The position numbers and the translations under genes are program-made. The notes below the pieces were generated by a model. The model was not told the DNA's origin, made no database searches, and was given only the letters and a program-made list of their open reading frames with translations. Below, one piece after another: positions 21,598 to 63,144 of a stretch of DNA of 64,000 nucleotides. The stretch lies in sequence record OV876907. One strand, 5' to 3'. The stretch is from Escherichia phage UGJNEcP3. Every line of letters starts with the position of its first letter. The stretch's first letter is position 1.

Positions 21598-21627
21598 ATA
21601 GTAACACGACGCTTTTTGTGTGTAAAC
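21598..21627 (-). promoter_or_regulatory. early-type promoter GTTTACA-N17-TACTATAG
   Basis: Upstream of minus-strand gene 21302-21568. Confidence 0.5.
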
Positions 21628-21633
21628 CACTTT

Positions 21634-21641
21634 TATAAATA
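21634..21641 (+). promoter_or_regulatory. T4-type late promoter TATAAATA (gene 24)
   Basis: Exact TATAAATA 29 nt upstream of gp24 ATG. Confidence 0.6.
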
Positions 21642-21670
21642 AAATTATATTCTCAATAAGGAAAATAGCA

Positions 21671-22951
21671 ATGGCTAAAATTAACGACCTTTTAAAAGAG
21701 TCGACCATTACTTCGAGTTCTTCGATTGGTCGTCCAAATTTAGTAGCTTTAACCAGAGCTACGACCAAACTGGTTTATACCGACCTTGTAGCTCAGCAGC
21801 GTACTAACCAACCTTTGGCTGCTCTATATGGTATCAAATATCTTACAGAAAAAGACGAATTATCTTTCCAGACGGGTGCTACTTATTCCGGCGCAGTATC
21901 CGCTAAAGACCGTGCCACTATCCCAGTTTTCACTGCAGGTGCTGTTTATGCTAAAGATGATTTGTTCCAATTTGAAAACGTAGTTTATAAAGCTTTGGTA
22001 GCAACCCCATTTGCCGGTGCTACTGGTGATGAATACGAACAACTTCAAGAAGCTATTGTTAAGTTGACTATCCGTATTATGTCCGAAGCCGCACTGACTG
22101 AGCGTTTTGAAGGCCCTCAGGATGTAGATATTTCTGAAGCTAAATTCATCGTTAATAAATGGAACGCTCCGGTTAAATCCCGTAAGTTGAAGAGTACTGT
22201 TACCGTAGAACTGGCTCAAGACCTCGAAGCAAATGGTTTCGATGCCCCTAATTTCTTAGAAGACCTCCTGGCTACTGAAATGGCTGATGAAATCAACAAA
22301 GATATTCTTCAGTCCCTGGTTACGGTTTCTAAGCGTTATAAAGTTGAAGGTTTGTGTGATGATGGCTTAATTGACCTGAGTTATGCTAACTCACCGGAAG
22401 CTTCTCGCAAGCTTTATGAATTGGTGTGTGAAATGGTTTCTCATATCCAGCGCGCAACCTCTTATACGGCAACTTATGTAGTAGCGAGTACTCGTGTAGC
22501 TGCTGTTCTGGCTGGTTCCGGATGGTTAAGACATACCCCACAGAACGACAAATATCTTTCTGCAAGTGCATACGGATTCCTGGAAAATGGTTTGCCTCTG
22601 TATTGTGATACTAACACGCCGATTGATTATGTTACTGTAGGGGTTAAAGAGGAATTTGGTGGGAAGGAAGCGGTAGGTTCTCTGTTCTATGCACCTTATA
22701 CCGAAGGCCTTGATTTGGCTGACCCTGAACATGTGGGTACGTTTAAAGTGGTCGTTGACCCGGAAAGTTTACAACCTTCCATTGCATTAATGGTTCGTTA
22801 TGCATTGGCTGCCAACCCGTATACAGTTACTGCCGATGATAAACAAGCCCGTATTATTGATGCAACTAATATGGATTTGATGGCGGGACGTTCTGATATG
22901 TCTGTATTGCTTGGTGTGAAACTTCCTAAAGTTTTGACTGAATTAAATTAA
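21671..22951 (+). CDS. 24: capsid vertex protein gp24
   Basis: ORF track; TATAAATA at 21634-21641; size and position as T4 gene 24. Confidence 0.9.
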   Translation: MAKINDLLKESTITSSSSIGRPNLVALTRATTKLVYTDLVAQQRTNQPLAALYGIKYLTEKDELSFQTGATYSGAVSAKDRATIPVFTAGAVYAKDDLFQFENVVYKALVATPFAGATGDEYEQLQEAIVKLTIRIMSEAALTERFEGPQDVDISEAKFIVNKWNAPVKSRKLKSTVTVELAQDLEANGFDAPNFLEDLLATEMADEINKDILQSLVTVSKRYKVEGLCDDGLIDLSYANSPEASRKLYELVCEMVSHIQRATSYTATYVVASTRVAAVLAGSGWLRHTPQNDKYLSASAYGFLENGLPLYCDTNTPIDYVTVGVKEEFGGKEAVGSLFYAPYTEGLDLADPEHVGTFKVVVDPESLQPSIALMVRYALAANPYTVTADDKQARIIDATNMDLMAGRSDMSVLLGVKLPKVLTELN

Positions 22952-22952
22952 C

Positions 22953-22979
22953 AAAAAGGGACCTCACGGTCCCTTTTTT
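22953..22979. terminator. bidirectional intrinsic terminator between gene 24 and rnlB
   Basis: AAAAA-GGGACC-TCAC-GGTCCC-TTTTTT; A-run and T-run on either side. Confidence 0.75.
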
Positions 22980-22982
22980 CAT

Positions 22983-23990
22983 TTATTTGGATACTAGTTC
23001 AATCCATACTGCTCGTAAGGTATCTTTTACGCACTCAACGAGCTGCTTTTTAACTTCAACAGGATTTTCCGCATCAGTTAATTCTAATTCTTCACGGGCA
23101 GCTTCTTCTAAGATATCTTGGACGGTCAAGCCCATTACCTTTCCAAAATCCTTCGGCGTTACTTCACCAATCTTACTGATAACATTGTTAATACGGTTAA
23201 CAGTCACATAATCAGTGAATTGCCACATCAAGTCCATATCATCTTGGGATAAAACCACTGCAACTTTAATAGGCTTATCAGACTTTTTCTTCTCGCTGAA
23301 TTTAGAGTTCTTACATTTAATTGCTACACGATTTCCATTAGGAAGCCAGATCGGAACATCAGGTTTAAGTACAAAGCCTTCAGCCGTAAATACTTTACCT
23401 TCTACCTTAGGAATAAAGTCTGTAGAGTTTGCAATAGTTAAGCCAGCGTTATCTACTGCAAAATTATAATCAGGAACAACAGAATCAAAATCATTAGGAA
23501 GTTTAATAAGGTCTTCAAAGCTACCAGTAGCCAAACATGGCGCAACCTTAAACTTATGGATAATGCAAAAAGCTTCCATCAACGTATCAGTCAGAACAGA
23601 TTCAGTGCCATCTTCCTTAGTAACTCGGATATCGAACACATAAAAGTCTTTATCACCGTAGTCCACATTCTTCTGGATACCTGTCCCAGCGAATTCGCCA
23701 TAAATCTGGTATGACCGGTAATTAATCGATTCAATTAGATGTTGAACGGATTTAATAGAATCAGCATAGTTCTTAAGTACAATTTCATAACCATAGAAAT
23801 CTTCAGCAGGGAGGATAGGGCCAGTGCGCTTGGCGCATGTGACGCAGTCACGTTCTATGATTAAACTAAAGTTGGTTCCATGAATCTTCTCACGTGCTAC
23901 CCATTCACCGCCAGTCAAACCATTAGTACGGAGTTTTTCGATAAACTTACTGTTGTAGTGGTTTTCGAGACTGCTATATTTCTTGAACAT
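22983..23990 (-). CDS. rnlB: RNA ligase 2 (RnlB)
   Basis: ORF track; [21 protein letters not shown]-terminus and nucleotidyltransferase motif EKIHG as in T4 Rnl2; convergent terminator shared with gene 24. Confidence 0.9.
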
Positions 23991-24104
23991 AAATCACCAT
24001 AATAAATATAATTAAATAGAAGAGCTAGTAGTCTTCTGTCACCAAGCCAAATGGTTTAACGGAAGGACCTAGACCCATTATAACACATCTAAATTTAAAG
24101 CATA

Positions 24105-24314
24105 TTACTTTGAACCAGAATGCTCTTTGCGCCGAACCTTGTTGTTCAATCTTTTACGATAAACAACCTTTTCTTTCGCTTTAAATTTGACCTTGGCTTG
24201 TTCTACATCAACCCATGCTTTGGCCATGTCCTTAGCGGTCCCGCCCATTTTTTTAGCAATTTCTATAAAATTCAACCCAGATTCGTGTAAAAAATGTACT
24301 TTAACCTTATCCAT
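24105..24314 (-). CDS. small helix-turn-helix protein, hypothetical
   Basis: ORF track; HTH-like segment GLNFIEIAKKMGGTAKDMAKAW then basic tail, resembling IS-family HTH proteins by eye. Confidence 0.5.
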   Translation of the reverse strand: MDKVKVHFLHESGLNFIEIAKKMGGTAKDMAKAWVDVEQAKVKFKAKEKVVYRKRLNNKVRRKEHSGSK

Positions 24315-24401
24315 AACAATTCTCTCGTTGAGTTGGTAAAACCCATCTTAACATAGAATTTTTAACTTGTAAACAGGAATTTTTGTACTTTAATGCAAAA
24401 T

Positions 24402-24415
24402 GGGCCTTGCGGCCC
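24402..24415 (-). terminator. hairpin terminator downstream of hoc
   Basis: Minus strand GGGCC-GCAA-GGCCC then ATTTTG; same 14-mer as the hairpin after gene 8. Confidence 0.45.
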
Positions 24416-24419
24416 GTAA

Positions 24420-25268: not shown

Positions 25269-25277
25269 AATAAACCC

Positions 25278-25949
25278 TTATTTTAAAGTGACAAAAGATG
25301 AGTTACGAGTTTCTCGTACTAGAACAGACCCATTACGATTGATGTAATAAATCAAACTGAATAGAGTTTGGTGCGCAGTGGGATGTGGGAAAGCAGTTGG
25401 ACGTTCTTTCCAATCTGGAGTCTCGGCAATCCACTGATAAATCCACCAAGGAACGGTGCAATAACCTGGGTTCTTACCGATAAGCAAAAGATTAGGACTG
25501 AAGTTTTCAGATAAAGAGAATACAGGTTTTTCAGATTCGATAACCTTGGTTACAGCCTCTTTGAATTTCTCTTCGTCAAATGGAACATCCTCTTCAATAA
25601 TCTCTACCTTAGGAAGTTCGGCTACCTCTATTACTTCAACAACTGCCTCAGGGGCATCGAACAACAGGGTTGCTTCTTCTTTAGCTGGTTCTACACCTTC
25701 GATAAAATCGTTATCACCGGTGAGTTCGTCAGCAGCATCAATCAAATCAGAAATAGACAAACCTTCAGTTTCTGGGAGTGGTTCGTCAGCCAAGGCTTTA
25801 AGGCCCTCAGAGATATCGATAATCAAATTATCAAACGAACGGGTTTTCTTAAGTTTTAAACCGAACTGTTCGCCGTATTCGATTAACTTAGCTTTAGCTT
25901 CTTTTTTATCTTCGAGTGCACGAAGCTCTTCAATATATTGAGTATCCAT
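25278..25949 (-). CDS. inh: prohead protease inhibitor Inh
   Basis: ORF track; acidic protein at the T4 inh position between hoc and uvsW; minus-strand TATAAATA upstream. Confidence 0.7.
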   Translation of the reverse strand: MDTQYIEELRALEDKKEAKAKLIEYGEQFGLKLKKTRSFDNLIIDISEGLKALADEPLPETEGLSISDLIDAADELTGDNDFIEGVEPAKEEATLLFDAPEAVVEVIEVAELPKVEIIEEDVPFDEEKFKEAVTKVIESEKPVFSLSENFSPNLLLIGKNPGYCTVPWWIYQWIAETPDWKERPTAFPHPTAHQTLFSLIYYINRNGSVLVRETRNSSFVTLK

Positions 25950-25968
25950 AATTAGTCTCTTGTTGGTG

Positions 25969-25990: not shown

Positions 25991-26004
25991 ACTGAGAATT
26001 ACTT

Positions 26005-27501
26005 ATGCAAATTCAAGTACATTTTGATAATTTTAGTCATGTCCGTATTGAATGCGATGAATCCACATTCTACGAACTCAGAGACTATTTTAGCTTTGAA
26101 GCTGATGGATATAAATTCAACCCTAAATTTCGTTATGGGCAATGGGATGGACGTATTCGTCTTCTAGATTATAATCGTAAACTTCCTTATGGATTGGTTC
26201 CTCAAATTAAAAAGTTCGCTGAACAATTTGAATACTCTCTGTGGATTGACCCACGTATTCTTGAACAGGAAGATATTTCTCGTGAGGATTTTGACTCATG
26301 GGTGGCTTCTCAAGAAATTTATTCAGGGTCTACCAAGATTGAGCCTCATTGGTATCAGAATGAAGCCGTATACAACGGCCTGACAAAACGTCGTGCAATT
26401 CTGAATTTGCCTACATCCGCAGGTAAATCATTGATTCAGGCACTCCTAAGTCGATATTACGTTGAGAACTACGAAGGTAAAATCCTTATATTAGTTCCTA
26501 CTACTGCACTTGTCGACCAGATGATTAATGACTTCATCGATTATCGATTGTTCCCTAAAGCAGCAATGCTTGGTATTCGTTCAGGTACTGCTCGTGATTC
26601 GGATGCAATGATTTATGTTTCAACCTACCAAACGGCAATTAAACAACCTAAAGAATGGTTTGCTCAGTTCGGTATGTTTATGAACGACGAATGCCATTTG
26701 GCTACAGGTAAATCTATTTCTACTATCATCGAAGGCCTAACCAACTGTATGTTTAAATTCGGTTTGTCTGGTTCTTTAAAAGATGGTAAAGCTAATTTAA
26801 TGCAATATATGGGTTTGTTTGGTGATGTGTTTAAGCCAGTATCCACCTCCCAGTTAATGGAAGAAGGACAGGTTACTGACCTTAAAATCAACAGTATCTT
26901 CCTTCGATACCCAGACGAATTCACGGTTAAGATGAAAGGTAAAGATTACCAATCAGAAATAAAGGTCATTACTAAGGCTACTCGCCGTAATAAATGGGTT
27001 GCTAATTTAGCTGTTAAACTCGCTAAGAAAGAAGAGAACGTATTCCTGATGTTTAAAAACATCGAGCACGGTAAAACTCTTTTTGAAATGGTTAAAGAGC
27101 AACATAAAGAAGTTTATTACGTATCAGGTGAAGTTAATACCGAAACGCGTAATGCTCTGAAAGTAATGGCGGAAAATGGTAAGGGTATTATTGTTGTGGC
27201 AAGTTATGGTGTGTTCTCTACTGGTATTTCCGTTAAGAACCTTCACCACGTTGTATTTGCTCACGGCGTAAAATCTAAAATCATTGTTCTGCAAACAATT
27301 GGGCGTGTACTCCGTAAGCATGACAGCAAACAGGTGGCCCAAGTCTGGGACCTCGTGGATGATATGGGAGTCCGCCCTAAATCTAAAGATTCTAAAAAGA
27401 AATATGTTCATTTAAATTATTGTCTGAAACACGGATTGGAACGTATTCAACGGTACGCAGACGAGAAATTTAATTATGTCATGAAAGAGGTACAGCTTTG
27501 A
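26005..27501 (+). CDS. uvsW: UvsW DNA/RNA helicase
   Basis: ORF track; helicase motifs PTSAGKS and DECH; TATAAATA at 25969-25976. Confidence 0.9.
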   Translation: MQIQVHFDNFSHVRIECDESTFYELRDYFSFEADGYKFNPKFRYGQWDGRIRLLDYNRKLPYGLVPQIKKFAEQFEYSLWIDPRILEQEDISREDFDSWVASQEIYSGSTKIEPHWYQNEAVYNGLTKRRAILNLPTSAGKSLIQALLSRYYVENYEGKILILVPTTALVDQMINDFIDYRLFPKAAMLGIRSGTARDSDAMIYVSTYQTAIKQPKEWFAQFGMFMNDECHLATGKSISTIIEGLTNCMFKFGLSGSLKDGKANLMQYMGLFGDVFKPVSTSQLMEEGQVTDLKINSIFLRYPDEFTVKMKGKDYQSEIKVITKATRRNKWVANLAVKLAKKEENVFLMFKNIEHGKTLFEMVKEQHKEVYYVSGEVNTETRNALKVMAENGKGIIVVASYGVFSTGISVKNLHHVVFAHGVKSKIIVLQTIGRVLRKHDSKQVAQVWDLVDDMGVRPKSKDSKKKYVHLNYCLKHGLERIQRYADEKFNYVMKEVQL

Positions 27502-28280
27502 ATTATCAGAAAATTTACGATGATTTAATAGAGAATGCTAGGTCCAGAGGATGGACCAAAGCTACTGCACCCTGTAAAATCGAAATTCATCATATTATTC
27601 CTAAGTCGATAGGTGGTTCCGATGACCCTAACAATTTAGTTGCATTGACTATTAGGGAACATATTTTGGGTCATATAATCTTGGCTAAAGCTCAAGGTGG
27701 AAAATTATGGCGTGCTGCATTTGGTATGACATGCGGTAAAAGATTAAATGAGATAAGCTCTAGGTCTATTTCCATTTTAAAAGAAAATGCTTCTAGATTA
27801 ATAAGCGAAGCCATGATTGGTAATACAAACGGCTCTTATGAATGGACCGATGAACGGAGAGAAATACACCGAAAAGCTATGGCTAAAGTTGGATTAACAG
27901 AAGCCAAATTAAAAGCTTTAGAAAAGGCTTGGACCAAAAATAAAGGTTCCAAGCAATCCAAAGAGACCATAGCCAAAAGGTCCAAAGCAATGAAAGGATT
28001 TACCCCTGTTAAAGCCGGAGATTATGAAACGTGTTCAAAAGCTGGCAAAGCCAATAAAGGTGTAAAGAAATCATTTAGGACTGAGGACCATTCTAAAAAT
28101 TGGCAAGCTACTTTGGCTAAGAAATATCCACACTGGTTAATGTACGATGAGCTTAAAGAGCTTTGGATAAATACAGGAAAGCTTAAAGTTGGTAAATTTA
28201 CAAAAGAAGCCATTAAAGCTGGTTATCCTAATGTGCATTACGGTAAAATGGTTACCAAATTTTTCGAGGAAATATTATGA
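27498..28280 (+). CDS. free-standing HNH endonuclease (putative homing endonuclease) inserted between uvsW and uvsW.1
   Basis: Classic HNH motif EIHHIIPKSIGGSDDPNNLVALTIREH; no in-frame ATG near 5' end, so TTG 27498 after GAGG is the likely start, overlapping uvsW stop. Confidence 0.7.
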   Translation: MNYQKIYDDLIENARSRGWTKATAPCKIEIHHIIPKSIGGSDDPNNLVALTIREHILGHIILAKAQGGKLWRAAFGMTCGKRLNEISSRSISILKENASRLISEAMIGNTNGSYEWTDERREIHRKAMAKVGLTEAKLKALEKAWTKNKGSKQSKETIAKRSKAMKGFTPVKAGDYETCSKAGKANKGVKKSFRTEDHSKNWQATLAKKYPHWLMYDELKELWINTGKLKVGKFTKEAIKAGYPNVHYGKMVTKFFEEIL

Positions 28281-28504
28281 AAACCTTTAAAGAAGTTATT
28301 CAAGAAGCATCTATTGAAAGCTTCATGGCTAAAATTGGTTCTTGTCAGACTATGGATGGTCTGAAGGAATTGGAAAAGTATTACAAAACTCGTAGTAAGG
28401 AAGCTGAACTTCGTGATTCGGACGATATTAGCGTGCGTGATGCATTGGCTGGTAAGAGAGCTGAATTGGAGTCGATGGACGACGAGGAAGAGGAAGATTT
28501 CTAA
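28277..28504 (+). CDS. uvsW.1: UvsW.1 small acidic protein
   Basis: ORF track; 75 aa with acidic DDEEEEDF tail; ATGA overlap with upstream stop. Confidence 0.75.
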   Translation: MKTFKEVIQEASIESFMAKIGSCQTMDGLKELEKYYKTRSKEAELRDSDDISVRDALAGKRAELESMDDEEEEDF

Positions 28505-36624: not shown

Positions 36625-36915
36625 TTATTTACGGAACGAAATGAAACCTGCTGTGGTCATTAGTGGTTGCTTTTTAACAAACACCGTGACCGAAATAGGA
36701 GCTTCAGATTCGAGTTGTCCTGTCACTACACCGTTAAAAATGTTTTCGGTTTGTTCTGGATAAGAAAAATTCTCAACAGGTCGGATATCAAACTGTTTGT
36801 CTTCACCAAAAACTCGACGTAATTCATTACCTACGGCACTGTCAAACTCTTCGGAAGCAGGGATAACGTTTTCAACTACCAGTTCTTGACCATTAAAACG
36901 GAATGCAGATTTCAT
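36625..36915 (-). CDS. hypothetical protein downstream of the alt array
   Basis: ORF track; GAGGAG RBS; own GTTTACA-N17-TACTAT promoter whose -35 overlaps the Alt-A stop codon. Confidence 0.6.
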   Translation of the reverse strand: MKSAFRFNGQELVVENVIPASEEFDSAVGNELRRVFGEDKQFDIRPVENFSYPEQTENIFNGVVTGQLESEAPISVTVFVKKQPLMTTAGFISFRK

Positions 36916-36943
36916 AATGTTCTCCTCATGTTTGTGTAAGGTA

Positions 36944-36973
36944 ATAGTACCACATCCTTGTGGTGTTGTAAAC
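36944..36973 (-). promoter_or_regulatory. early-type promoter GTTTACA-N17-TACTAT
   Basis: Upstream of the 36625-36915 gene; -35 overlaps the Alt-A stop codon. Confidence 0.5.
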
Positions 36974-39096: not shown

Positions 39097-39099
39097 TAT

Positions 39100-47079: not shown

Positions 47080-47445
47080 TTAGATATCAAATTCGTTAAG
47101 AACTACATCAAAGATTGCTTCCAGGTGTTCAGGTTTAGCACGGTTGCTCAGGATGTGACGAATCCAAGTTTTAACCAGAAGCTTACGATTATCGCCGTTC
47201 CAGCAAGGATGGGTACCTAAATCACGTTGACGGAAATCGTCATCTAAAGCGATTTTAAAAGTAGAACCTTCCATAGTGATTGAAACCGTAATACCATTTT
47301 CAAAGCGCATGTAAACGTAGTTAGGAGTCATGCACTGTTCGATTTCACACACTGTACCGTTTTCGTGTTTCCACAGGCAAATAACTTCGGAAGAACCAGC
47401 GATACCGTTAGAAACATATTTACGTTCGAAGTTGATGTAGTTCAT
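47080..47445 (-). CDS. hypothetical protein with duplicated promoter-leader (copy 1)
   Basis: ORF track; GGAGAA RBS; leader about 45 nt near-identical to that of the 47519-47851 gene. Confidence 0.6.
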   Translation of the reverse strand: MNYINFERKYVSNGIAGSSEVICLWKHENGTVCEIEQCMTPNYVYMRFENGITVSITMEGSTFKIALDDDFRQRDLGTHPCWNGDNRKLLVKTWIRHILSNRAKPEHLEAIFDVVLNEFDI

Positions 47446-47485
47446 TTTATTCTCCAGTTTGTTTTCGTATTATTTGGTACAGGTC

Positions 47486-47514
47486 TATAATAACACAACC
47501 TGTACCAAAGTAAA
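47486..47514 (-). promoter_or_regulatory. early-type promoter TTTACT-N17-TATTAT within duplicated leader (copy 1)
   Basis: Upstream of 47080-47445; 10-bp inverted repeat TTGGTACAGG / CCTGTACCAA flanks the -10. Confidence 0.45.
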
Positions 47515-47518
47515 ACAT

Positions 47519-47851
47519 TTATTTCACAACATTCCAATTTTTCATATCAAGTTTACCAACTTTTTTCATCTGAGCAATCAGACGTTCAGCACGTTTGCGG
47601 GCATTAACATAATAGAATTCACCAATTTCGTTTTCTTCAATACGGCCGGTAATTACAGTTTTCAGTTCATAAATCCAACCTGTAAAGAAGTTATGAAGCT
47701 CGATGGTAAAGGTGAAATCGGTACCCATACCTTCTGTTGTTTCAACTTCGATGATATCACCTTCAACTGCAGTCAGGACCCACATGGTTTCTTGATATTC
47801 ACCGTTGAAACATTTAGCTTTAACAGATGCATTCAGGTTTACAGTTTTCAT
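47519..47851 (-). CDS. hypothetical protein with duplicated promoter-leader (copy 2)
   Basis: ORF track; GGAGAA RBS; TGTACA-N16-TACTATAG promoter; shares an EG..T.F..I.L motif region with the neighbouring gene. Confidence 0.6.
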   Translation of the reverse strand: MKTVNLNASVKAKCFNGEYQETMWVLTAVEGDIIEVETTEGMGTDFTFTIELHNFFTGWIYELKTVITGRIEENEIGEFYYVNARKRAERLIAQMKKVGKLDMKNWNVVK

Positions 47852-47892
47852 TTTATTCTCCGGTTTGTTTTCGTATTATTTGGTACATGTCT

Positions 47893-47920
47893 ATAGTATC
47901 ATGCCTACCGGAGATGTACA
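47893..47920 (-). promoter_or_regulatory. early-type promoter TGTACA-N16-TACTATAG within duplicated leader (copy 2)
   Basis: Upstream of 47519-47851; downstream 45 nt near-identical to copy 1. Confidence 0.45.
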
Positions 47921-47949
47921 CCCTTTTTTTAAGATTTAGAAACAAAAAT

Positions 47950-47967
47950 GGGACTCCGAAGAGTCCC
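47950..47967 (-). terminator. intrinsic terminator after the small basic ORF (UUCG tetraloop)
   Basis: Minus strand GGGACTC-TTCG-GAGTCCC then ATTTTTGTT. Confidence 0.6.
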
Positions 47968-47972
47968 ATAAC

Positions 47973-49111: not shown

Positions 49112-49169
49112 ATTTAATCCATATTGTTTTGTTGATAGATTAATAATAACACGCTATTCTTAAAGCATA

Positions 49170-50250: not shown

Positions 50251-50480
50251 TCTACGTACACTCGCTGCGCTTCGACCAGACCATCAGAACCAAGTTTTAA
50301 CTGGGTAATCTGGTCCCCATCTTTAGGGTTGACAATCACCAGCACTGCCCGTGGTGTTTCCTGGATTACTCGCAGAGTTGCATCAGGAAAACGTACAGAA
50401 ACCTTATTAATCAGGGCCTGAGCAAATTCTTTAACTTTAACTTGGAACTGCTCTACAGTAATAGGTTGTTCGCTCAGCAT
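50247..50480 (-). CDS. hypothetical protein (cd.x cluster)
   Basis: ORF track; ATGA overlap with cd. Confidence 0.5.
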   Translation of the reverse strand: MLSEQPITVEQFQVKVKEFAQALINKVSVRFPDATLRVIQETPRAVLVIVNPKDGDQITQLKLGSDGLVEAQRVYVE

Positions 50481-51034
50481 TAGATGGTCTCCAACTTAAG
50501 TTGTTTGGTAGTGGTAGCTTGGGTAACGTCGCCTTTAACAATATAACACACTTGTTGGAACGAACTGGTCAAAAGCTCTTCGGCTTGTCGATCGGCTTGT
50601 TCCTTTGTGTTATGGCGAGAATGAACTTCAATCTTACCATTTTTAACAATAAGCACTTTCCAATCGGCTGTAGCTTTTACTGGCTTAGGTTCGTCATTTT
50701 CAGGAATACTTACCGATACCAGTGGACGTACTACTTCAATAAAGTATTCGAATTCATGGCCAAAAAAGCCTGATGAATTAAAAAGAACACTATTTGCATC
50801 ATCAGGATTGCCTGTGAGTTTGCTCGGGTCCACAAACATCATCTCGTCATATACACGAATTCGGCTTACGCGTTCGCGCCCATTATGGTAATCAATTTCA
50901 ACTTCAAATGGGTTCATACCTACATACTTGGCAAAAGCTGTATTGAGGCCATAAGAGCCGTTATTAGTGAATTTGTTTTTAGTGTATTCACTAATGAACT
51001 TGTAAAACTTACGCTCTTCAAAGAACTTACTCAT
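50480..51034 (-). CDS. hypothetical protein (cd.x cluster)
   Basis: ORF track; GAGGAA RBS; GTTTACT-N17-TATGAT promoter upstream. Confidence 0.55.
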   Translation of the reverse strand: MSKFFEERKFYKFISEYTKNKFTNNGSYGLNTAFAKYVGMNPFEVEIDYHNGRERVSRIRVYDEMMFVDPSKLTGNPDDANSVLFNSSGFFGHEFEYFIEVVRPLVSVSIPENDEPKPVKATADWKVLIVKNGKIEVHSRHNTKEQADRQAEELLTSSFQQVCYIVKGDVTQATTTKQLKLETI

Positions 51035-51064
51035 TTCGATTTCCTCATTTGTTTCGGTAAGGTC

Positions 51065-51093
51065 ATCATATCACCGTCCTTGGTGAAAGTAAA
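51065..51093 (-). promoter_or_regulatory. early-type promoter GTTTACT-N17-TATGAT
   Basis: Upstream of 50480-51034. Confidence 0.45.
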
Positions 51094-51102
51094 CACCTTT
51101 TT

Positions 51103-51381
51103 TTAAATTGCTTCGACAACCACCGTTTGTTTCTGGAAGTCCATTTTGCATGAAATAGCCAAAATGTGGTTATCAATTTTAAATGGAACGATTGCAAATG
51201 CTGCACCTGGCGTGAGTTGAACAGTGATTGCATCAACTGCATCAGGGAACATGATTTCCAGAATAGCAGACAAACGACCATGCACCTTTAGTTCAGTCGA
51301 CACGTCGACGGGTTCGTATAGGTAATCAGATACAATCTGACTAAAAATGGTTTTAACAATTTCAGAATAAGTAGGGAACAT
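51103..51381 (-). CDS. hypothetical protein (cd.x cluster)
   Basis: ORF track; GAGGT RBS. Confidence 0.5.
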   Translation of the reverse strand: MFPTYSEIVKTIFSQIVSDYLYEPVDVSTELKVHGRLSAILEIMFPDAVDAITVQLTPGAAFAIVPFKIDNHILAISCKMDFQKQTVVVEAI

Positions 51382-53012: not shown

Positions 53013-53016
<4 letters not shown>

Positions 53017-53495
53017 ACACCAAGCTCCTTATAAAGTTCTTCGCGACAGGTTTTCAGAAGTTTACCACTTTCATATGCTGATTTTTCATCAACATCACCT
53101 AAAGCCACAGCTTGCTGCATCTGGCCGTGGCGTTTAGCTGCGTATTCAAAACTTTTTACTAGCTCACGAATACGTTCTTTTTCATTGTACTCTTCAATGA
53201 ATTCAGGGTATTCCCAAACAGGTCGCATCATACGATACCACTGTTGGATGGTAATATAATTACTTCCGTTCAAATTAATAATCTGTGAAGGCTCAATAGA
53301 CCCTGGAGCATAAAAAGTTACCTGTCTTACTACATCAATACCGTCCACAATAGCCCAAGCAAAATCGAAAGTTGCCTTCTTTTCAATAGGAGTGCTTGCA
53401 CAGGACCCTAGTTTAAGGAGCTTTTGTAATACAGGAGATTTAATACTTGAAATGTATTCTGGCTTAGCCACAAAACTGTTATCACGTAATGTCAT
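53013..53495 (-). CDS. hypothetical protein (pseT.x cluster)
   Basis: Start at internal ATG 53495 (MTLRDNSF) after GAGGAAA; track start 53531 falls inside the promoter -10. Confidence 0.5.
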
Positions 53496-53529
53496 AATAA
53501 TTTCCTCAATTTTTATAATCCGTAGGAGC

Positions 53530-53559
53530 ATTATACTCTGCTCCCAAGAGTTTGTAAAC
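53530..53559 (-). promoter_or_regulatory. early-type promoter GTTTACA-N17-TATAAT
   Basis: Upstream of 53013-53495; perfect -10. Confidence 0.5.
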
Positions 53560-53659
53560 TACTTTCCGAAAAGACCTTGGACACATAAAGTGGCCGCAAT
53601 TCCAAAACAAAAACAGAATGCACCAAATCTAACAATACCCCAACCAAGACTACACTCAA

Positions 53660-53950: not shown

Positions 53951-54300
53951 TCTGTGATGCTCCTGAAGTCTTTGGCAAAGGAATCGAAGGACTTGTTGAT
54001 TTGTTTTTCGACCAATCCTGGCTTACTTGCCACCACGTGCGCCTTCTTCGAATCTTTACGGAGCTTTTCATTTTCTACCTTAATTTTATCCATTCGGGCA
54101 TTCATTTCAGTAGTACGGAATTCAATATCTGAGTATTGGCCACGAAGGTCATCAACAGCTTCAGCGTTCTGTTTAGCCGTTTGCTGGGTTGTTTTAAGTT
54201 CTTCAGTTAATGTATCAATACGGCTTGATTGATATGAAATCAGACCATAAGCACCTACTGCAAGAGCTCCGGCTAAAAGGTAAATACTTAATTTAGACAT
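53947..54300 (-). CDS. pseT.3: i-spanin-like membrane protein
   Basis: N-terminal transmembrane helix IYLLAGALAVGAYGLI then charged coiled-coil-like region. Confidence 0.65.
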   Translation of the reverse strand: MSKLSIYLLAGALAVGAYGLISYQSSRIDTLTEELKTTQQTAKQNAEAVDDLRGQYSDIEFRTTEMNARMDKIKVENEKLRKDSKKAHVVASKPGLVEKQINKSFDSFAKDFRSITE

Positions 54301-54788
54301 TTGGTAATAATCTCGATGATATCATCACGTGACAGGGAATTAATAAGAACCGTTTTAGGGTTTTCACACTGAATTTTATACGTTTCAAACATAAAACATA
54401 ATTCTTCAGCGGTATGGTAAGGACTTGAAATGCCGAGGCGATTAAACTTGTCGCTTAATGGGTCGCAAATCAAATAGAAAGTGATTCCTGAGATTTTAAC
54501 ATTAGGCTGACTGATATTAATGAACACCTCGGCATCATACTTAGAAAGGTTGTTTTGGAGAAACTCTACCATAGAGTTAACAGCTTCAGGCATGGCTTCA
54601 CGCTTTTCTTCTGCATAACGGGTAGAGTATTCTTTTTGCTTGATTTTCTTTTTAGCATTTTTAGCTAAAGTAACACGAAGATCGGTCAGGTAACCTACTG
54701 CACGGGAACCTTTAAAAACTTGGATACCGTCAGTAGAATCACCAAAAGCTTTAACAACCATTTCGTTAGTAATCATTTGCATATTCAT
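54288..54788 (-). CDS. alc: Alc-like protein (host transcription shutoff on cytosine DNA)
   Basis: ORF track; call rests on size and conserved position between pseT.3 and rnlA. Confidence 0.6.
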   Translation of the reverse strand: MNMQMITNEMVVKAFGDSTDGIQVFKGSRAVGYLTDLRVTLAKNAKKKIKQKEYSTRYAEEKREAMPEAVNSMVEFLQNNLSKYDAEVFINISQPNVKISGITFYLICDPLSDKFNRLGISSPYHTAEELCFMFETYKIQCENPKTVLINSLSRDDIIEIITKCLN

Positions 54789-54817
54789 TTTGTTTTCTCC
54801 TCATTAGTTGGTAGGTC

Positions 54818-54847
54818 TATACTAACACATCATGAGGAGATGTAAAC
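54818..54847 (-). promoter_or_regulatory. early-type promoter GTTTACA with weaker -10 (upstream of alc)
   Basis: GTTTACA with AGTATA or TAGTAT at the 16-17 nt position. Confidence 0.4.
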
Positions 54848-55995
54848 TACTCTATCACAATTTCTTTCAAATATTTTTCAGGGATTTGGGCCTTATGATT
54901 TTTCAAGAACACAGAGTTAATCTGGTCTACGACCGTATCATAATTAATGCCGCCCACGTACGCCTGCATAAGAATAGAGAACAACCCTGGGAAGTCCTTA
55001 AGGATTAATTGACCTGTAACGGCGTAGTCCTTACGGTCCCGGCCCTTGAGCTGAGAATATGCTGCTTCTAACAAAGCCAGTGATTGTTCTAAGTAATCTA
55101 AATGGATACGTTCAAAGGCATCGATTTTCTCGATAGCAAACGAATCCGTACTGAACAGACCACGAAGGTCATCAGTTCCGCCAGCCACTACAACTTCAAA
55201 CAAACGTTCGTTATTGTTAATGGAATCTTTGGTATGATGTAGTGCACTGTACCATGCAGTTTTGAGTTTAAAGAACGTACCATCTTTCAGTACAAAGATA
55301 AAACCTTCAATAGCCTCTTGTTTACGAATGTTTTCTACGAAATCACCCTCGGTGAGGTCATAGCTTTCAACCAAATGCTTACGCAGGGCGCCGTCCTTAA
55401 ACAATTCCGCATACGGAATATATTCACCCGTTTCATTATTACGAACGTTCAACAGGATAAGGTTTGTTTCTTGGTAAGCCAGCACTATACGGTTGGTAGG
55501 TGCAACATATTCAAGGTTACAGGTGTACCCGGCTTTGGTGATTTCTTCCAGTCGAGCAGCAAAAGCCTCGTTCTCAGGGAGACGAAGGAAACGTAAAGAA
55601 TCATGCACCATTGACGAATGGATAGAGCCTTTAGATTTAACAGAAAGATACTGTCGGTCCATGAATGTAGAAATCAGAGAACCGTCTTCCTTAGCCATAA
55701 CCAAGTCAATATTTTCTGGTGACAAATCTAGACCGATGGTCAACGGGTTTTCATCGAGATTAAAGAACTTTTGCATAGGACGAGCCGCGATACGTACAGG
55801 ACCGTTCTCGTCCATTTCAAACATAATGCCTCGGCACTCTAGGGCGCCGTCTTCCAACCAATCACTGTACGATGCATAGTTATAACTAAAGATGCGATAG
55901 TTGACTCCTAGCGCACTCTGGAAGTCTTTAAAGAAGAACTTAGATTTAGTTGAGTTTTTAACCAAAGTCATCAAGTTATCATATAATTCAATCAT
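54847..55995 (-). CDS. rnlA: RNA ligase 1 (RnlA)
   Basis: ORF track; collinear with T4 Rnl1 (YRIFSYNYASYSDW, adenylation lysine motif KEDGS). Confidence 0.9.
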   Translation of the reverse strand: MIELYDNLMTLVKNSTKSKFFFKDFQSALGVNYRIFSYNYASYSDWLEDGALECRGIMFEMDENGPVRIAARPMQKFFNLDENPLTIGLDLSPENIDLVMAKEDGSLISTFMDRQYLSVKSKGSIHSSMVHDSLRFLRLPENEAFAARLEEITKAGYTCNLEYVAPTNRIVLAYQETNLILLNVRNNETGEYIPYAELFKDGALRKHLVESYDLTEGDFVENIRKQEAIEGFIFVLKDGTFFKLKTAWYSALHHTKDSINNNERLFEVVVAGGTDDLRGLFSTDSFAIEKIDAFERIHLDYLEQSLALLEAAYSQLKGRDRKDYAVTGQLILKDFPGLFSILMQAYVGGINYDTVVDQINSVFLKNHKAQIPEKYLKEIVIE

Positions 55996-56440: not shown

Positions 56441-57649
56441 TTAAAAATATTTCTTGTACGATGCCATTACTTTTTCATCAACATCGTTATCAATTTGTGC
56501 TACAAGGTAAGAACTGATTTCCACTTCCTGAGGAGCAGCCTGTACAGAATCAGAGTTCAGGTATTCGCGAATCCAAGGATATGGGTGGCGAGTAGGGGCA
56601 TCAGTAATAGGACACGGTAAGCCACATTGCTTCATACGAGAAACTGTCAGGTAATCGACAAAAGCACCCATGTTCTGAGTATTTAATCCAGGGCAAGTAC
56701 CATCTTTGAACAGGTGAGCAGCCCATTCTTTTTCTTGACGGTTAACTTCCATGAAAATATCAACTGCTTCTTGTTCACACTCTTGAGCAATTTTAACCCA
56801 TTCGTCACCGTCAGTACCAAGTTGGAGTTGACGAATAATGTACTGAGTACCTTTAAGGTGAAGCTGTTCATCACGTGCAATGAACTTCATAATCTTAGCA
56901 TTACCTTCCATGATTTCCATGTTTTTATGGAAGTTAAAGGTGCATGCGAAAGATACATAAAAACGAATAGCTTCCAATGCGTTGATTACATGAAGGCAAA
57001 GGTAAAGGGATTTCATTAGCTCACGCTTCCAATACATCTCATGCTCAATAGCATCTTCAATATCGTCTTCGTCTGCATTAATTTCTTTTTGGTATTCGAT
57101 ATCAGCTTTAGCATTCTGCCAATAGCGAGTTTTCTCAATAACGTCGTCGTAATAACGACCAATAGATTCAGCACGTTTCATAATAGCGTCATCTAACAGA
57201 ATTTCATCAAATACCTTTGATGGGTCTGTATAGAGGTTACGCATGATATGGGTATATGAACGAGAGTGAATAGTCTCACTAAAGGTCCATGTAGCCACCC
57301 ATGTATCAAGGCTAGGGTCTGAAATCAAGGCTTGAAGTGCAGCAGAAGGAGCACGTCCTTGGATACTATCCAGAAGTGATTGATACTTCAGGTTATTGGT
57401 AAAAATATTTTGTTGGAATTGTGGAAGCTTATTAAATTGAGCAGCATCCATCATCAAGTTGACTTCTTCTGGACGCCAGAAAAAACTCAACTGCTTTTCA
57501 CAAAGCTCTTCGAATACTTTATGACGTTGGATATCATAACGAGCAATACCCAATCCTGAACCAAAGAACATCGGTTCGGCTAAAACATCAACTGGGGTGG
57601 TATTAAAAACTGTAGACATGTTATTCTCATTTGTTAGTGACTCATCCAT
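56441..57649 (-). CDS. nrdB: ribonucleotide reductase small subunit
   Basis: ORF track; single uninterrupted ORF (no intron); di-iron radical protein-like motifs. Confidence 0.9.
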   Translation of the reverse strand: MDESLTNENNMSTVFNTTPVDVLAEPMFFGSGLGIARYDIQRHKVFEELCEKQLSFFWRPEEVNLMMDAAQFNKLPQFQQNIFTNNLKYQSLLDSIQGRAPSAALQALISDPSLDTWVATWTFSETIHSRSYTHIMRNLYTDPSKVFDEILLDDAIMKRAESIGRYYDDVIEKTRYWQNAKADIEYQKEINADEDDIEDAIEHEMYWKRELMKSLYLCLHVINALEAIRFYVSFACTFNFHKNMEIMEGNAKIMKFIARDEQLHLKGTQYIIRQLQLGTDGDEWVKIAQECEQEAVDIFMEVNRQEKEWAAHLFKDGTCPGLNTQNMGAFVDYLTVSRMKQCGLPCPITDAPTRHPYPWIREYLNSDSVQAAPQEVEISSYLVAQIDNDVDEKVMASYKKYF

Positions 57650-57672
57650 GAGTCAATTATAATCAGATTTTA

Positions 57673-59928: not shown

Positions 59929-60056
59929 AATTTCCTCAATATGTTAGGTTCTACAATTATTCTATCATAGAACCTGTTAAGCATGGACTGATATTTATAG
60001 AATGAAATTCAGTCCGACCATAATAACCAAAAACAGAGTACAGATTATTTGAATTT

Positions 60057-61507
<1,451 letters not shown>

Positions 61508-61840
61508 TTAACTGCATTTTTTAATTGCGGTAAAATCTTTGCGAATATCAAGAACCAATTTGTAAAGATGTTTAATGGTATCAGTATCAAAATAAGCGAC
61601 GGCACAACGTGATTGGCGAATATCTTCTAATGAATATTTGCTTTCGCTAGACCCATATCCAATGATACCACTAATGCACTTGTCATTAAGCGTATATTTC
61701 TGTGGGCCATCAATATTATTTTTAGGATAGATGTAAAGGCTCCAATCAAATTTTTGTTCAAGCGTATTAACCTTAACTTCAAGAATCAGTTCAGGATGTG
61801 GATCATCTTTGGCAAAGCAAGTGTATTCAGTAAGCATTAT
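61508..61840 (-). CDS. hypothetical protein (frd.x cluster)
   Basis: Start at internal ATG 61840 (MLTEYTCFAKDD) after GAGGAAAA; track start 61978 overlaps the upstream ORF. Confidence 0.5.
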   Translation of the reverse strand: MMLTEYTCFAKDDPHPELILEVKVNTLEQKFDWSLYIYPKNNIDGPQKYTLNDKCISGIIGYGSSESKYSLEDIRQSRCAVAYFDTDTIKHLYKLVLDIRKDFTAIKKCS

Positions 61841-61847
61841 ATTTTCC

Positions 61848-62087
61848 TCACGCTTTCTTAGCGACTTTCCAGTCAGCTTTAAATTGGCCGACATCAGAGT
61901 GGTGAATCCAGAAACCAGATGAGCTACCATCTTCATAAAGAGGACACCCGTCGCACTCATCTTTCCAACCCATTTCACACAAAGCTTGTTCGGCTTTTTC
62001 TAAAGCTTCCGGATTGTTACCCTGGATTGTGAAGTACCATTTGCCTTTAACTTCAGAATCGTTGATTGATTCTCGTTGTAATTTCAT
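61848..62087 (-). CDS. hypothetical protein (frd.x cluster)
   Basis: Start at ATG 62087 (MKLQRESIND) after AAGGAG; GTTTACA-N17-TACTATAG promoter upstream. Confidence 0.55.
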   Translation of the reverse strand: MKLQRESINDSEVKGKWYFTIQGNNPEALEKAEQALCEMGWKDECDGCPLYEDGSSSGFWIHHSDVGQFKADWKVAKKA

Positions 62088-62112
62088 TTTATTCTCCTTA
62101 GTTGGTAAGGCT

Positions 62113-62142
62113 ATAGTATCACTACCATAGCCTGGTGTAAAC
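62113..62142 (-). promoter_or_regulatory. early-type promoter GTTTACA-N17-TACTATAG
   Basis: Upstream of 61848-62087. Confidence 0.5.
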
Positions 62143-62144
62143 AC

Positions 62145-62372
62145 TTATTTTTGAATTAAGCCCATATAAAATTTAGTGTCTTCCGGGTGCATACCGTCAC
62201 AATACTCGACAGCCATAAAGCGGGTAAGGTCTTCAAGAGGACCCTGGACTTCAATTTGCATACTACAGAATTGAGTATCTTTAATATGGGTCATAACTAA
62301 AGAAGGATAACGATTACGGATAACTTCGTAAGTGTATTCAAAATCAACGATATCAATATTAACCTTAGCCAT
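62145..62372 (-). CDS. hypothetical protein (frd.x cluster)
   Basis: Start at ATG 62372 (MAKVNIDIV) after GAGGAAAA; promoter TTTACA-N16-TACTATAG upstream. Confidence 0.55.
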
Positions 62373-62404
62373 TTTATTTTCCTCACTCATTAGTTGATAG
62401 GTCT

Positions 62405-62433
62405 ATAGTATCATGTCTACAGACCTTGTAAAC
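62405..62433 (-). promoter_or_regulatory. early-type promoter GTTTACA-N16-TACTATAG
   Basis: Upstream of 62145-62372. Confidence 0.5.
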
Positions 62434-62434
62434 A

Positions 62435-62695
62435 CTATTTTTGAATTTTATCGAGCCATTTACCAAGTTTAATCATTTCTTTGGTAGCTTTTTCCATACT
62501 TCTGAATTTAACCAGTAAAGGTTGTGCATCAACACCCATAACCAAAGTGGTTACAAGACTATGCTCGCCTACAAGCCATAACGAATACGTTTGAATATCG
62601 AGCCCGTAATTTCTGTCTTTATGGACTCGTACACCCATCACTTCAAATTTCTCACTGGCTTTTTCTACTGCATCCAGGAAATCGTCTTTAGTCAT
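62435..62695 (-). CDS. hypothetical protein (frd.x cluster)
   Basis: Start at ATG 62695 in TAAtATG arrangement with upstream stop. Confidence 0.5.
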   Translation of the reverse strand: MTKDDFLDAVEKASEKFEVMGVRVHKDRNYGLDIQTYSLWLVGEHSLVTTLVMGVDAQPLLVKFRSMEKATKEMIKLGKWLDKIQK

Positions 62696-62696
62696 A

Positions 62697-63086
62697 TTAG
62701 GCCTTAAAAGTTTTTTGCAAAAGTTCAATGATTTGGTCAACGTTCTGTTCGGTGACAATGCAATGGATTTGGGTCACGCCGGCCTTAGCAATAGGCTCAT
62801 CGATTTCTTTATCTTCCACAACATATTCACGGAAGCAATAGAACTCGTCTTCATGCAACTCAAAATAATTTGGCACCAACCCAACTGCATTATAAATCTC
62901 GCCGTTAGCGCATTCGATTTCAGTCACAAATTTGTCGCCATCCATAGTCAACATATCCTTTACTTCAAACCAACCACCGTTGTCTTGGATAAGGTCGACC
63001 ATGCTTTTATTATTTTCATATTCGTCCATTTCAATAAAGTCTTTAATGCATTCAGGACGAAGTTCATAAGTTTTACCGATTTCCAT
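62697..63086 (-). CDS. hypothetical acidic protein (first gene downstream of 32)
   Basis: ORF track; GAGGAAA RBS; promoter TTTACA-N16-TACTATAG and the gene 32 terminator upstream. Confidence 0.6.
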   Translation of the reverse strand: MEIGKTYELRPECIKDFIEMDEYENNKSMVDLIQDNGGWFEVKDMLTMDGDKFVTEIECANGEIYNAVGLVPNYFELHEDEFYCFREYVVEDKEIDEPIAKAGVTQIHCIVTEQNVDQIIELLQKTFKA

Positions 63087-63115
63087 TTTTATTTCCTCAT
63101 GTAGTGGATAGGCCT

Positions 63116-63144
63116 ATAGTATCACGTTTAAAGGCTTTGTAAAC
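63116..63144 (-). promoter_or_regulatory. early-type promoter GTTTACA-N16-TACTATAG
   Basis: Upstream of 62697-63086, just downstream of the gene 32 terminator. Confidence 0.5.

Follow-up and report, generated by a model that had tools for sequence, protein, structure and literature searches.

Probable T4-Type Early Promoters With Embedded Inverted Repeats in the Dhakavirus Escherichia Phage UGJNEcP3

Introduction

Bacteriophage T4 has about 39 early promoters (Pe), which have been characterized as "über" promoters that join UP, -35, TGn and -10 elements to additional consensus regions (PMC2988021). Among T4-like phages, the -35 element of such promoters reads GTTTAC at positions -36 to -31, with T rather than G at -33, and positions -3 to -1 are rich in C (PMC1524935). 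Here, we analyze a family of elements with a GTTTACA-type -35 that recurs in a 64,000-nucleotide stretch of Escherichia phage UGJNEcP3 (sequence record OV876907), termed the window below. These elements are very probably T4-type early promoters, of the standard kind, in a phage of the genus Dhakavirus, and many of them have a spacer that is complementary to the promoter's own downstream half.

Inverted repeats within early promoters have a described counterpart in the PeSL cassettes of phages RB49 and phi1, whose stem-loop is mostly found between the promoter boxes or overlapping the -10 (Arbiol et al. 2010, PMC2839356). One of these stem-loops was shown to be a terminator, and the cassettes recombine, with mini-circles seen in RB49/phi1; analogous, weaker elements built on T4 early promoters were described from the T-even phages and ranked as analogues, not homologues, and PeSL-like sequences were reported in JS98 (PMC2839356). 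Two further systems concern translation. In the T4 hairpins that sequester a ribosome-binding site (e, soc, 49, and I-TevI; also mobE of Aeh1), translation is possible from the short local transcript and not from the long read-through RNA (PMC3014915). At sigma54 promoters, an anti-Shine-Dalgarno motif in the promoter silences expression from read-through RNA (bioRxiv 10.1101/086108).

Materials and Methods

Between positions 61000 and 64000, the window is 100% identical to Escherichia phage UGJNEcP4 (OV877765.1; Straboviridae, Tevenvirinae, Dhakavirus) and 91–93% identical to JS10-type phages. A window position x corresponds to position x + 87101 of the OV877765.1 record, whose annotation follows the T4 gene order (baseplate/head genes, then alt, 30, 31, cd, pseT, alc, rnlA, nrd, td, and frd), with the early genes on the minus strand. 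Genome-wide searches were made on the full 170,590-bp genome with an iterative two-block position weight matrix (PWM): the first block spanned the -35 and 12 upstream bases, the second the -10 together with 5 bases before and 12 after it, and the hexamer spacer was allowed to vary from 16 to 19 nt. The threshold was set at two hits in total over ten Markov-shuffled genomes (∼0.2 per shuffled genome). One promoter is counted twice, at record positions 54 and 170517, because the ends of the linear OV877765.1 record overlap briefly (1–75 and ∼170480–170590). The consensus anatomy was derived from 43 curated sites, and the identical PWM procedure, applied to T4 (NC_000866), provided the 35 T4 sites used in the comparisons. 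For the folding comparisons, a chimera consists of the upstream half of one promoter joined to the downstream half of another. Promoters are named by the window position at which the -35 starts.

Results and Discussion

A Family of Probable sigma70-Type Promoters on the Early Strand

The pattern GTTTACA-N15-18-TACTATAG occurs four times where 0.00 occurrences are expected, always on the minus strand (21596–21627, 62111–62142, 62403–62433, and 63114–63144), and the looser GTTTAC-N18-TAnnnT occurs nine times against an expected 0.89. The downstream component, TACTATAG, is found seven times by itself (2.0 expected), and GTTTACA by itself is not enriched (15 vs 13.8 expected). An unbiased search for direct repeats returned the same sites as the largest direct-repeat family (D1/D2). 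Genome-wide, the PWM search converged on 47 sites, 46 of them on the minus strand; the -10 is intergenic in 42 of the 47, though only 5.9% of the genome is intergenic, and typically lies 30–50 nt before an annotated ATG. The window contains twelve members: eleven are on the minus strand, and the twelfth, at 14493, is on the plus strand (Table 1). A search of the whole window against Rfam at gathering thresholds gave zero matches.

The consensus of the curated sites reads aaaaAa..GTTTACA - spacer - caTGa - TACTAT - (a)(g)(a)CCTAtcaA - ∼10–25 nt - GAGGAGA..ATG, in which an A/T-rich, UP-like element (aaaaAa..) directly precedes GTTTAC, and TACTAT is followed by ..CCTATCAA.. and then by a GGAG-type ribosome site. 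The -35 is GTTTAC(A/T) in 36 of the 43 sites and differs at one or two of its six bases in the others (GTATAC, GTGTAC, TTTTAC, GTTTAT; ATGTAC at two). TG is present at -15/-14 in 37 sites, making the -10 an extended one, and the -10 hexamer has T, A and T at its first, second and sixth positions throughout (TACTAT in 22 sites, TATAAT in nine, TATTAT in five). The hexamers are separated by 17 nt in 24 sites and by 18 nt in 19, which is 16–17 nt in the sigma70 frame (TTTACA). Downstream, the strongest positions are C, C, T, and A at about -3 to +1 (77–81%, 72%). Several ribosome sites, including that of promoter 62142, read GGAGAATAAAATG and fit the RegB/S1 cleavage consensus, which GGAGAATAAAA also matches; for RegB it has been given as GG*AGRAYARAA (PMC3014915). 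The phage itself encodes matching machinery, namely three Alt-like genes, ModA/B-like genes, RegB, MotA, and AsiA.

The initial annotation had counted at least ten such sites between 21598 and 63144, and the PWM finds eleven minus-strand members there. Its variants GTTTACT, GTGTACA, TATAAT, TATTAT, and TATGAT are genuine members, its 16–17 nt after the heptamer amount to a hexamer spacing of 17–18 nt, and the ribosome site that it placed after the -10 is present as a GGAG or GAGG Shine-Dalgarno (SD) sequence between the -10 and the start codon, which are 31–47 nt apart. Its statement that the family stands before nearly every independently transcribed minus-strand accessory gene was too broad, as a member precedes 11 of the ∼24 minus-strand genes that have a preceding gap of at least 25 nt. 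The gaps without a member contain MotA-box-like motifs (rnlB, gene 31, nrdB, and nrdA), the late motif TATAAATA (inh and gp26), or nothing detectable. Likewise, a search of the region upstream of the plus-strand HNH open reading frame (ORF) at 27498–28280, which had been credited with a promoter of this kind, found no family element.

The MotA-box-like motifs have the form nGCTTnA-N11-13-TAnnnT and lie on the minus strand at 22983–24104, 49112–49169, 57620–57672, and 59929–60056; they are candidate middle promoters, in gaps that have no early promoter. Given such neighbors, and given that MotA, AsiA, gp55, and gp33 are all encoded, the family members could themselves be MotA/AsiA-dependent middle promoters or gp55 late promoters. 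We consider this most improbable: the members carry a sigma70-type -35, GTTTAC, at 17–18 nt instead of a MotA box (TGCTT) centered at -30, no family member contains the fuller box (a/t)(a/t)(a/t)TGCTT(t/c)A at that position, and TATAAATA is likewise in no member, the MotA-like and late motifs being found in other gaps.

If these are early promoters, the host sigma70 RNA polymerase, either unmodified or ADP-ribosylated by Alt, would bind four elements right after DNA injection: the A-rich UP element, contacted by the carboxy-terminal domain of the alpha subunit (alpha-CTD), the -35 (G-TTTACA), the TGn of the extended -10, and a -10 of the type TAnnnT, mostly TACTAT, at 16–17 nt in the sigma70 frame. 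Transcription would probably start at the A seven nt after the -10 (..CCT-A-TCAA..), and the short conserved leader would end in a GGAG-type SD sequence; as this fits the RegB/S1 consensus, the message could be inactivated a few minutes later.

Comparison With the Early Promoters of T4

Applied to T4, the search returned 37 sites (36 on the minus strand), although the T4 matrix was seeded from the matrix of the present phage and the T4 set may thus be biased toward look-alikes. Two other points also weigh against the identification. A generic sigma70 consensus scan of these regions showed no enrichment (38 vs 55 expected; 57 vs 55), and the evidence therefore rests on the family-specific pattern instead of a plain sigma70 match. 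Furthermore, we infer timing, start sites, and strength by homology, and the involvement of Alt and RegB and the action of the hairpins described below are likewise inferred. An anchor for the T4 set is the site with its -35 at 133331, in which the seventh base after the -10 is 133295, and the T4 RefSeq record names a promoter Pe133295. This match identifies the T4 PWM sites as curated early promoters, and it favors the A of ..CCT-A-TCAA.. as the start in the present phage.

The two sets share most of their anatomy. TGn is found in 31 of 35 T4 sites and in 37 of 43 here, TACTAT is the commonest -10 in both (16/35 and 22/43), and the UP region, GTTTAC, and a downstream ..cTATCAAc.. block are common to both phages. 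In both, early-strand ORFs lie 30–50 nt downstream, ribosome sites are of the GGAG type that fits the RegB consensus, and inverted repeats are embedded in the promoters. At least seven of the eleven minus-strand window sites are positional orthologues of T4 promoters (23/24 gap, alt.-3, 30.7, 30.8, cd.3, alc, and frd.3). The differences are a hexamer spacer of 17 nt in 24/43 sites here against 18 nt in 33/35 T4 sites, a discriminator that reads AGACC here and ACAAC in T4, and embedded hairpins that have no measurable sense-strand (G.U) bias here. G two bases after the -10 is also more frequent (58% vs 26% in T4); a G at this position is said, after Haugen et al. in 2006, to make the optimal contact with sigma region 1.2. 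Taken together, sequence architecture, strand, position, and the direct T4 comparison support the early-promoter identity, and the resemblance to the T4 early-promoter consensus that had initially been noted is borne out in architecture, strand bias, and position.

The conserved bases downstream of the -10 had been proposed as a phage-specific recognition element. The AG after TACTAT is conserved only moderately (A 47%, G 58%), with CCTA at about -3 to +1 being strongest. Nor is the extension specific to this phage, because T4 early promoters have the same commonest -10, TACTAT, and the same ..CTATCAAC.. downstream block. It is instead a shared feature of the Tevenvirinae, due partly to start-site and discriminator preferences of ordinary sigma70 initiation and partly to hairpin complementarity, in which CTATAG(A/G)CC pairs with GG(T/C)CTATAG in the spacer. 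A related proposal is that a factor encoded by the phage, such as one with an early-promoter shut-off function, binds the block between -6 and about +10 (AGACCTATCAAC), which would then be no feature of the polymerase or of the leader. In both genera, conservation of this block goes beyond the requirements of a -10, and the mechanism of early-promoter shut-off in T4 has been stated to be unknown (PMC2988021, PMC3014915). A bound factor is nevertheless quite unlikely, as large parts of the block change together with the spacer, and its most conserved bases (C-3, C-2, T-1, and A+1) fit ordinary start-site preferences, a C-rich -3 to -1 being known from T4-like phages (PMC1524935).

The family extends well beyond the two genomes: a 68-nt consensus cassette matches more than 1000 records of T4-like phages, including T4 itself between ipII and denV. 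One early promoter of T4, with its -35 at 65413 and upstream of denV, has the Dhakavirus design: the spacer is 17 nt long, TACTATAGACCTATCAAC is present, and the spacer sequence TCTCCTGTAG complements CTACAGGAGA at the SD. It differs very little from the UGJNEcP4 promoter at record position 59313, a near-identity which suggests that a whole cassette was exchanged laterally between genera.

Predicted Hairpins Embedded in the Promoters

On inspection, many sites had a spacer able to pair with the same promoter's sequence past the -10, in two arrangements. In type 1, the spacer pairs with -6 to -1 and often also with part of the -10 (62433, 62142, 47515, and 53559); in type 2, the sequence just past the -35 pairs with the SD region (54847 and 47921, and elsewhere in the genome TCTCCTGTAG/CTACAGGAGA and ATCTCCATTA/TAATGGAGAT). 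The longest perfect complement between spacer and downstream sequence averages 5.85 nt within promoters and 4.66 nt across promoters (0/5000 permutations), and perfect runs of at least 8 nt occur in 9 of 46 own pairs against 2% of cross pairs. Own halves also fold more stably than chimeras, at -13.9 vs -10.9 kcal/mol in this phage (z = -8.2, 0/10000 permutations) and -15.4 vs -10.4 kcal/mol in T4 (z = -10.7, 0/10000 permutations). Helices of at least seven positions are present at 21 of the 43 sites, and the many distinct, covarying stems are heterogeneous among sites (AGGTCT, GGGTA, GGTACAGG, TCTCCTCAT, and others).

About half of the promoters are PeSL-like, with an untranscribed spacer (sometimes together with part of the -10) that pairs with its own discriminator/+1 region or, in a subset, with its own SD. 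The 5' arm precedes the start site, so that locally started transcripts cannot contain the hairpin; it would form only in read-through RNA begun at an upstream promoter, which RNA it would most likely attenuate or mark. We put the chances that the hairpins act on read-through RNA at about even. The sense strand of T4 promoters folds better than the antisense strand in 29 of 35 cases, and internal mismatches are G.U in nine instances and A.C in one, which indicates selection at the RNA level in T4. In this phage, the excess hairpin stability is -0.35 kcal/mol at promoters with a canonical terminator within 70 nt upstream and -3.60 kcal/mol at those without (p = 0.03); in T4, the same split gives -1.76 vs -5.63 kcal/mol, in the same direction (p = 0.12). 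The near-zero excess beside upstream terminators fits a role on read-through RNA.

Other observations count against such a role, or against its generality. The test for strand asymmetry in this phage gave no folding asymmetry between sense and antisense strands and mismatch counts of 3 G.U vs 2 A.C, so that selection on RNA over DNA is unsupported here. The stems are not followed by a U tract and are therefore not predicted to be canonical intrinsic terminators, and promoter 63144 has no embedded hairpin. Finally, Salmonella phage ABTNLsp5 has an orthologue of promoter 62433 whose flanks remain of the promoter's own type (96–100% identity) and whose block of -35 and spacer is 100% identical to the neighboring 63144 type, an exchange that removes the hairpin; as ABTNLsp5 is viable without it, the hairpin is dispensable at this orthologous site.

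The ABTNLsp5 promoter, a mosaic with a 17-nt spacer patch from the neighboring cassette, favors a different account of why ∼70–100 nt are conserved, which concerns the upkeep of this long conservation and not the identity of the promoters. The cassettes could be mobile, kept similar mainly as recombination homology by which accessory genes are shuffled, and the inverted repeats could be targets of recombination or processing at the DNA level. Recombination between cassettes and mini-circles are on record for RB49/phi1 (PMC2839356), T4 itself has a Dhakavirus-type promoter before denV (65413), and folding in this phage has no strand asymmetry. Promoters 47515 and 47921 have 5' untranslated regions (47441–47495 and 47847–47901) that form a direct repeat of 55 nt with 93% identity, reaching from the -10 to the start codon (repeat D5); the two spacers differ, each complementing its own variant bases (CCTG/CAGG at 47515; CCGGAGA/TCTCCGG at 47921). 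In addition, according to a note in the T4 RefSeq record, an earlier report gave the 14-nt loop of Pe133295 in inverted-complement form, which fits the presence of flanking inverted repeats. On the other side, the indel breakpoints between JS10 and UGJNEcP4 in the frd-32 region (∼61834–61841 and 63072–63090) fall at gene boundaries and start codons and not in promoter cores, the sense-strand bias in T4 (G.U 9 vs A.C 1; 29/35 more stable in sense) points to RNA and not to DNA, and the stems are not of the GGGG/CCCC type proposed as a protein target. We regard mobile cassettes as a possible, if somewhat doubtful, explanation of the conservation.

The embedded hairpins share several features with PeSL. 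In both, a strong early promoter has a stem-loop that adjoins it or overlaps the -10, SD and ATG lie at the 3' end, and stems contain G-T pairs; both are concentrated in regions of accessory genes and bear signs of cassette-to-cassette recombination. PeSL promoters, however, have a plain sigma70 consensus, whereas the -35 here is of the GTTTAC type, and PeSL stems are typically polyG/polyC (GGGG...CCCC), whereas those described here are heterogeneous and have no U tract. The present family thus appears to fit the PeSL description functionally and not by sequence.

A more specific role, suggested by the type 2 hairpins, is translational insulation: a CT-rich anti-SD in the untranscribed spacer would pair with the SD in read-through RNA, so that only local transcripts would be translated and exposed to RegB. 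Perfect complements of 8–11 nt between spacer and SD region, with covarying flanks, occur in 7 of 46 promoters against 2% of cross pairs, and CT-rich tetramers are present in 30% of spacers against 9% of background. At promoters 54847 and 47921, the predicted probability that the SD is unpaired is 0.80–0.88 in the local transcript (0.80 for 54847) and 0.00 in the read-through RNA, and the alc promoters of T4 and of this phage both pair spacer with SD, by different sequences. There is also precedent, in that such an element would be an analogue of T4 e/soc/49/I-TevI and of the sigma54 promoter insulators (bioRxiv 10.1101/086108). Across the family, the mean probability of an unpaired SD in this phage is 0.63 in local transcripts and 0.36 in read-through RNA. 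The latter value, and its T4 equivalent of 0.38, are no different from those for chimeras (0.35), shuffled upstream sequence (0.36/0.37), and random genomic upstream sequence (0.35/0.39), and type 1 hairpins leave the SD free (0.91–0.97).

Insulation as the explanation of the family is therefore unlikely, and family-wide anti-SD insulation was rejected, since read-through RNA with a real upstream half has the same predicted SD accessibility as RNA with a chimeric, shuffled, or random one; insulation is plausible for a subset, including 54847 and 47921. These two share with the T4 hairpins that sequester ribosome sites a promoter inside the hairpin and a 3' arm on the SD. The known T4 cases use late or middle promoters to delay expression, whereas the internal promoter here is early, and only a subset of sites is concerned. 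With the sigma54 insulators, the family shares a CT-rich promoter motif, upstream of the start, that pairs with the downstream SD; it differs in sigma factor and organism, and here the effect is not above shuffled controls family-wide.

Beyond the individual hairpins, we propose, tentatively and with considerable doubt, that in T4-type phages the untranscribed half of the promoter has been selected to pair with its own downstream half in read-through RNA, that each gene would thereby have two RNA isoforms with different fates, and that the hairpins would replace missing terminators.

Predicted Promoters, Terminators, and Neighboring Genes in the Window

The family members in the window are compiled in Table 1, together with adjoining terminators; canonical UUCG- or GCAA-loop terminators lie immediately upstream of promoters 63144, 47921, and 24374.

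Table 1. Predicted early promoters of the window, with their elements, inverted repeats, and adjoining terminators.
Feature	Window coordinates	Strand	Elements	Context	Inverted repeat
Early promoter 63144	63087–63164	-	UP-like A/T stretch; -35 GTTTAC 63144–63139; TGa; -10 TACTAT 63121–63116; predicted +1 63109; SD GAGGA	Before ORF 62697–63086 (frd.2-like); PWM 44.2	
Intrinsic terminator	63161–63180	-	GGGAAGAC-TTCG-GTCTTCCC + T run	16 nt upstream of -35 of promoter 63144	
Early promoter 62433	62373–62453	-	-35 62433–62428; -10 TACTAT 62410–62405; predicted +1 62398	Before ORF 62145–62372 (frd.3-like); PWM 50.5	Type 1, AGGUCUGUAG/CUAUAGACCU; encloses TGn and part of -10
Early promoter 62142	62088–62162	-	-35 62142–62137; -10 TACTAT 62118–62113; predicted +1 62106	Before ORF 61848–62087 (frd.1-like)	Type 1, 11 bp, AGGCUAUGGUA-GUGA-UACUAUAGCCU
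Early promoter 54847	54789–54867	-	-35 54847–54842, overlapping rnlA stop codon; -10 TAGTAT 54824–54819; predicted +1 54812	Before alc-like ORF 54288–54788	Type 2, spacer TCTCCTCAT, perfect complement of ATGAGGAGA at SD
Early promoter 53559 (TATAAT sub-class)	53496–53579	-	-35 53559–53554; -10 TATAAT 53535–53530; predicted +1 53523		Type 1, stem GGGAGC/GCUCC; brackets -10
Early promoter 51094	51035–51114	-	-35 GTTTACT 51094–51089; -10 TATGAT 51070–51065; predicted +1 51058	Before ORF 50480–51034; positional orthologue of T4 Pe133295	
Early promoter 47921	47852–47941	-	-35 GTGTAC 47921–47916; -10 TACTAT 47898–47893; predicted +1 47886	Before ORF 47519–47851 (30.8-like)	Type 2, spacer UCUCCGGU with ACCGGAGA at SD (arms also given as TCTCCGGT/ACCGGAGA)
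Intrinsic terminator	47948–47969	-	ATGGGACTC-TTCG-GAGTCCCAT + T run	Upstream of promoter 47921	
Early promoter 47515	47446–47535	-	-35 TTTTAC 47515–47510; -10 TATTAT 47492–47487; predicted +1 47480	Before ORF 47080–47445 (30.7-like)	Type 1, 12 bp, TTTGGTACAGGT/ACCTGTACCAAA; brackets -10; same hairpin at T4 129918
Early promoter 36973	36916–36993	-	-35 36973–36968, overlapping Alt stop codon; -10 TACTAT 36949–36944; predicted +1 36937	Before alt.-3-like ORF 36625–36915 (DUF5498)	
Terminator	36618–36595			Closes one-gene unit of promoter 36973	
Early promoter 24374	24315–24394	-	-35 24374–24369; -10 TAAGAT 24350–24345; predicted +1 24338	Before 24.3-like ORF 24105–24314 (DUF2774)	
Terminator	24415–24402		GGGCC-GCAA-GGCCC	Upstream of promoter 24374	
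Early promoter 21627	21569–21647	-	-35 21627–21622; -10 TACTAT 21603–21598; predicted +1 21591	Before ORF 21302–21568; between genes 23 and 24, as T4 segD promoter	
Early-type promoter 14493	14481–14559	+	-35 14493–14498; -10 TATAAT 14517–14522; predicted +1 ∼14529	Sole plus-strand member, weakest (PWM 20.5); outside 21598–63144	8 bp, GCGCGTAT/ATACGCGC; at predicted transcript 5' end

Promoter 53559 belongs to a sub-family of four TATAAT promoters, with the others at record positions 8767, 43130, and 70478. Their stems bracket the -10 in four covarying sequences (GGGAGC/GCTCC, GGGACC/GGTCC, GAGGAC/GTCCTC, and AGAGCC/GGCTCT), and they share the downstream motif TA(C/T)GGATTATAA; T4 has one such promoter, at 7215 (motB).

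At least two listed start codons fall within a -10 element. The annotated start of ORF 53013–53531 (minus strand), at 53531, sits inside the -10 of promoter 53559 (TATAATG), and its true start is likely the ATG at 53495, after GAGGA. The listed ATG at 14521 of an ORF matching phrog_5104 similarly falls within the -10 of promoter 14493 (TATA-ATG); the profile match starts at residue 13, and translation probably begins at the GTG at 14557, after AAGGA. This plus-strand ORF, to which no function is assigned, is inserted between the tail sheath and tail tube genes and carries promoter 14493 (14493–15177).

The plus-strand ORF at 27498–28280 has a Pfam HNH domain and a homing endonuclease match among phrogs, and its TTG start overlaps a uvsW stop codon. 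Having no promoter of its own, it is probably expressed by read-through or translational coupling. It divides the gene for the uvsW helicase into two parts, at 26005–27501 and 28277–28504 (plus strand).

Upstream of promoter 36973 lie three tandem genes for Alt-like RNA polymerase ADP-ribosyltransferases (36973–43236, minus strand; 707, 682, and 695 amino acids), where T4 has one alt gene and fragments.

The only difference between the window and OV877765.1 consists of four bases at 21276–21279, within a hairpin (21267–21288) that follows the major capsid gene. The window reads GGGAGAC-CGAA-GTCTCCC, and the loop in OV877765.1 is TTCG, its reverse complement, which would place a UUCG loop on gene 23 transcripts. 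Other strong terminators of the window have four-nucleotide loops that read TTCG, GCAA, or GTAC on their own strand, and a bidirectional one at 22953–22978 has CACG/GTGA. The cause may be inversion of the loop, a variant of the assembly, or an edit.

Implications for Dhakavirus Biology

As a promoter, the element belongs to textbook T4 biology. The public record of this Dhakavirus genome is without regulatory annotation, and the family supplies a usable map of its early promoters; with this map, at least two start codons placed within -10 elements are corrected, and the accessory genes that form independent immediate-early units are defined. The three Alt-like genes bear on the stimulation of early promoters in this genus. 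Furthermore, the quantitative self-complementarity of early promoters across the -10, in two genera, extends the PeSL idea to promoters of the T-even type, and promoters 54847, 47921, 47515, and 62142 are testable candidates for telling read-through from locally initiated transcripts. If two RNA isoforms do exist for each gene, the local transcript would be open, translatable, and cleavable by RegB, and the promoter-spanning hairpin of the read-through isoform would attenuate or stabilize that RNA or, in a subset, occlude the ribosome site.

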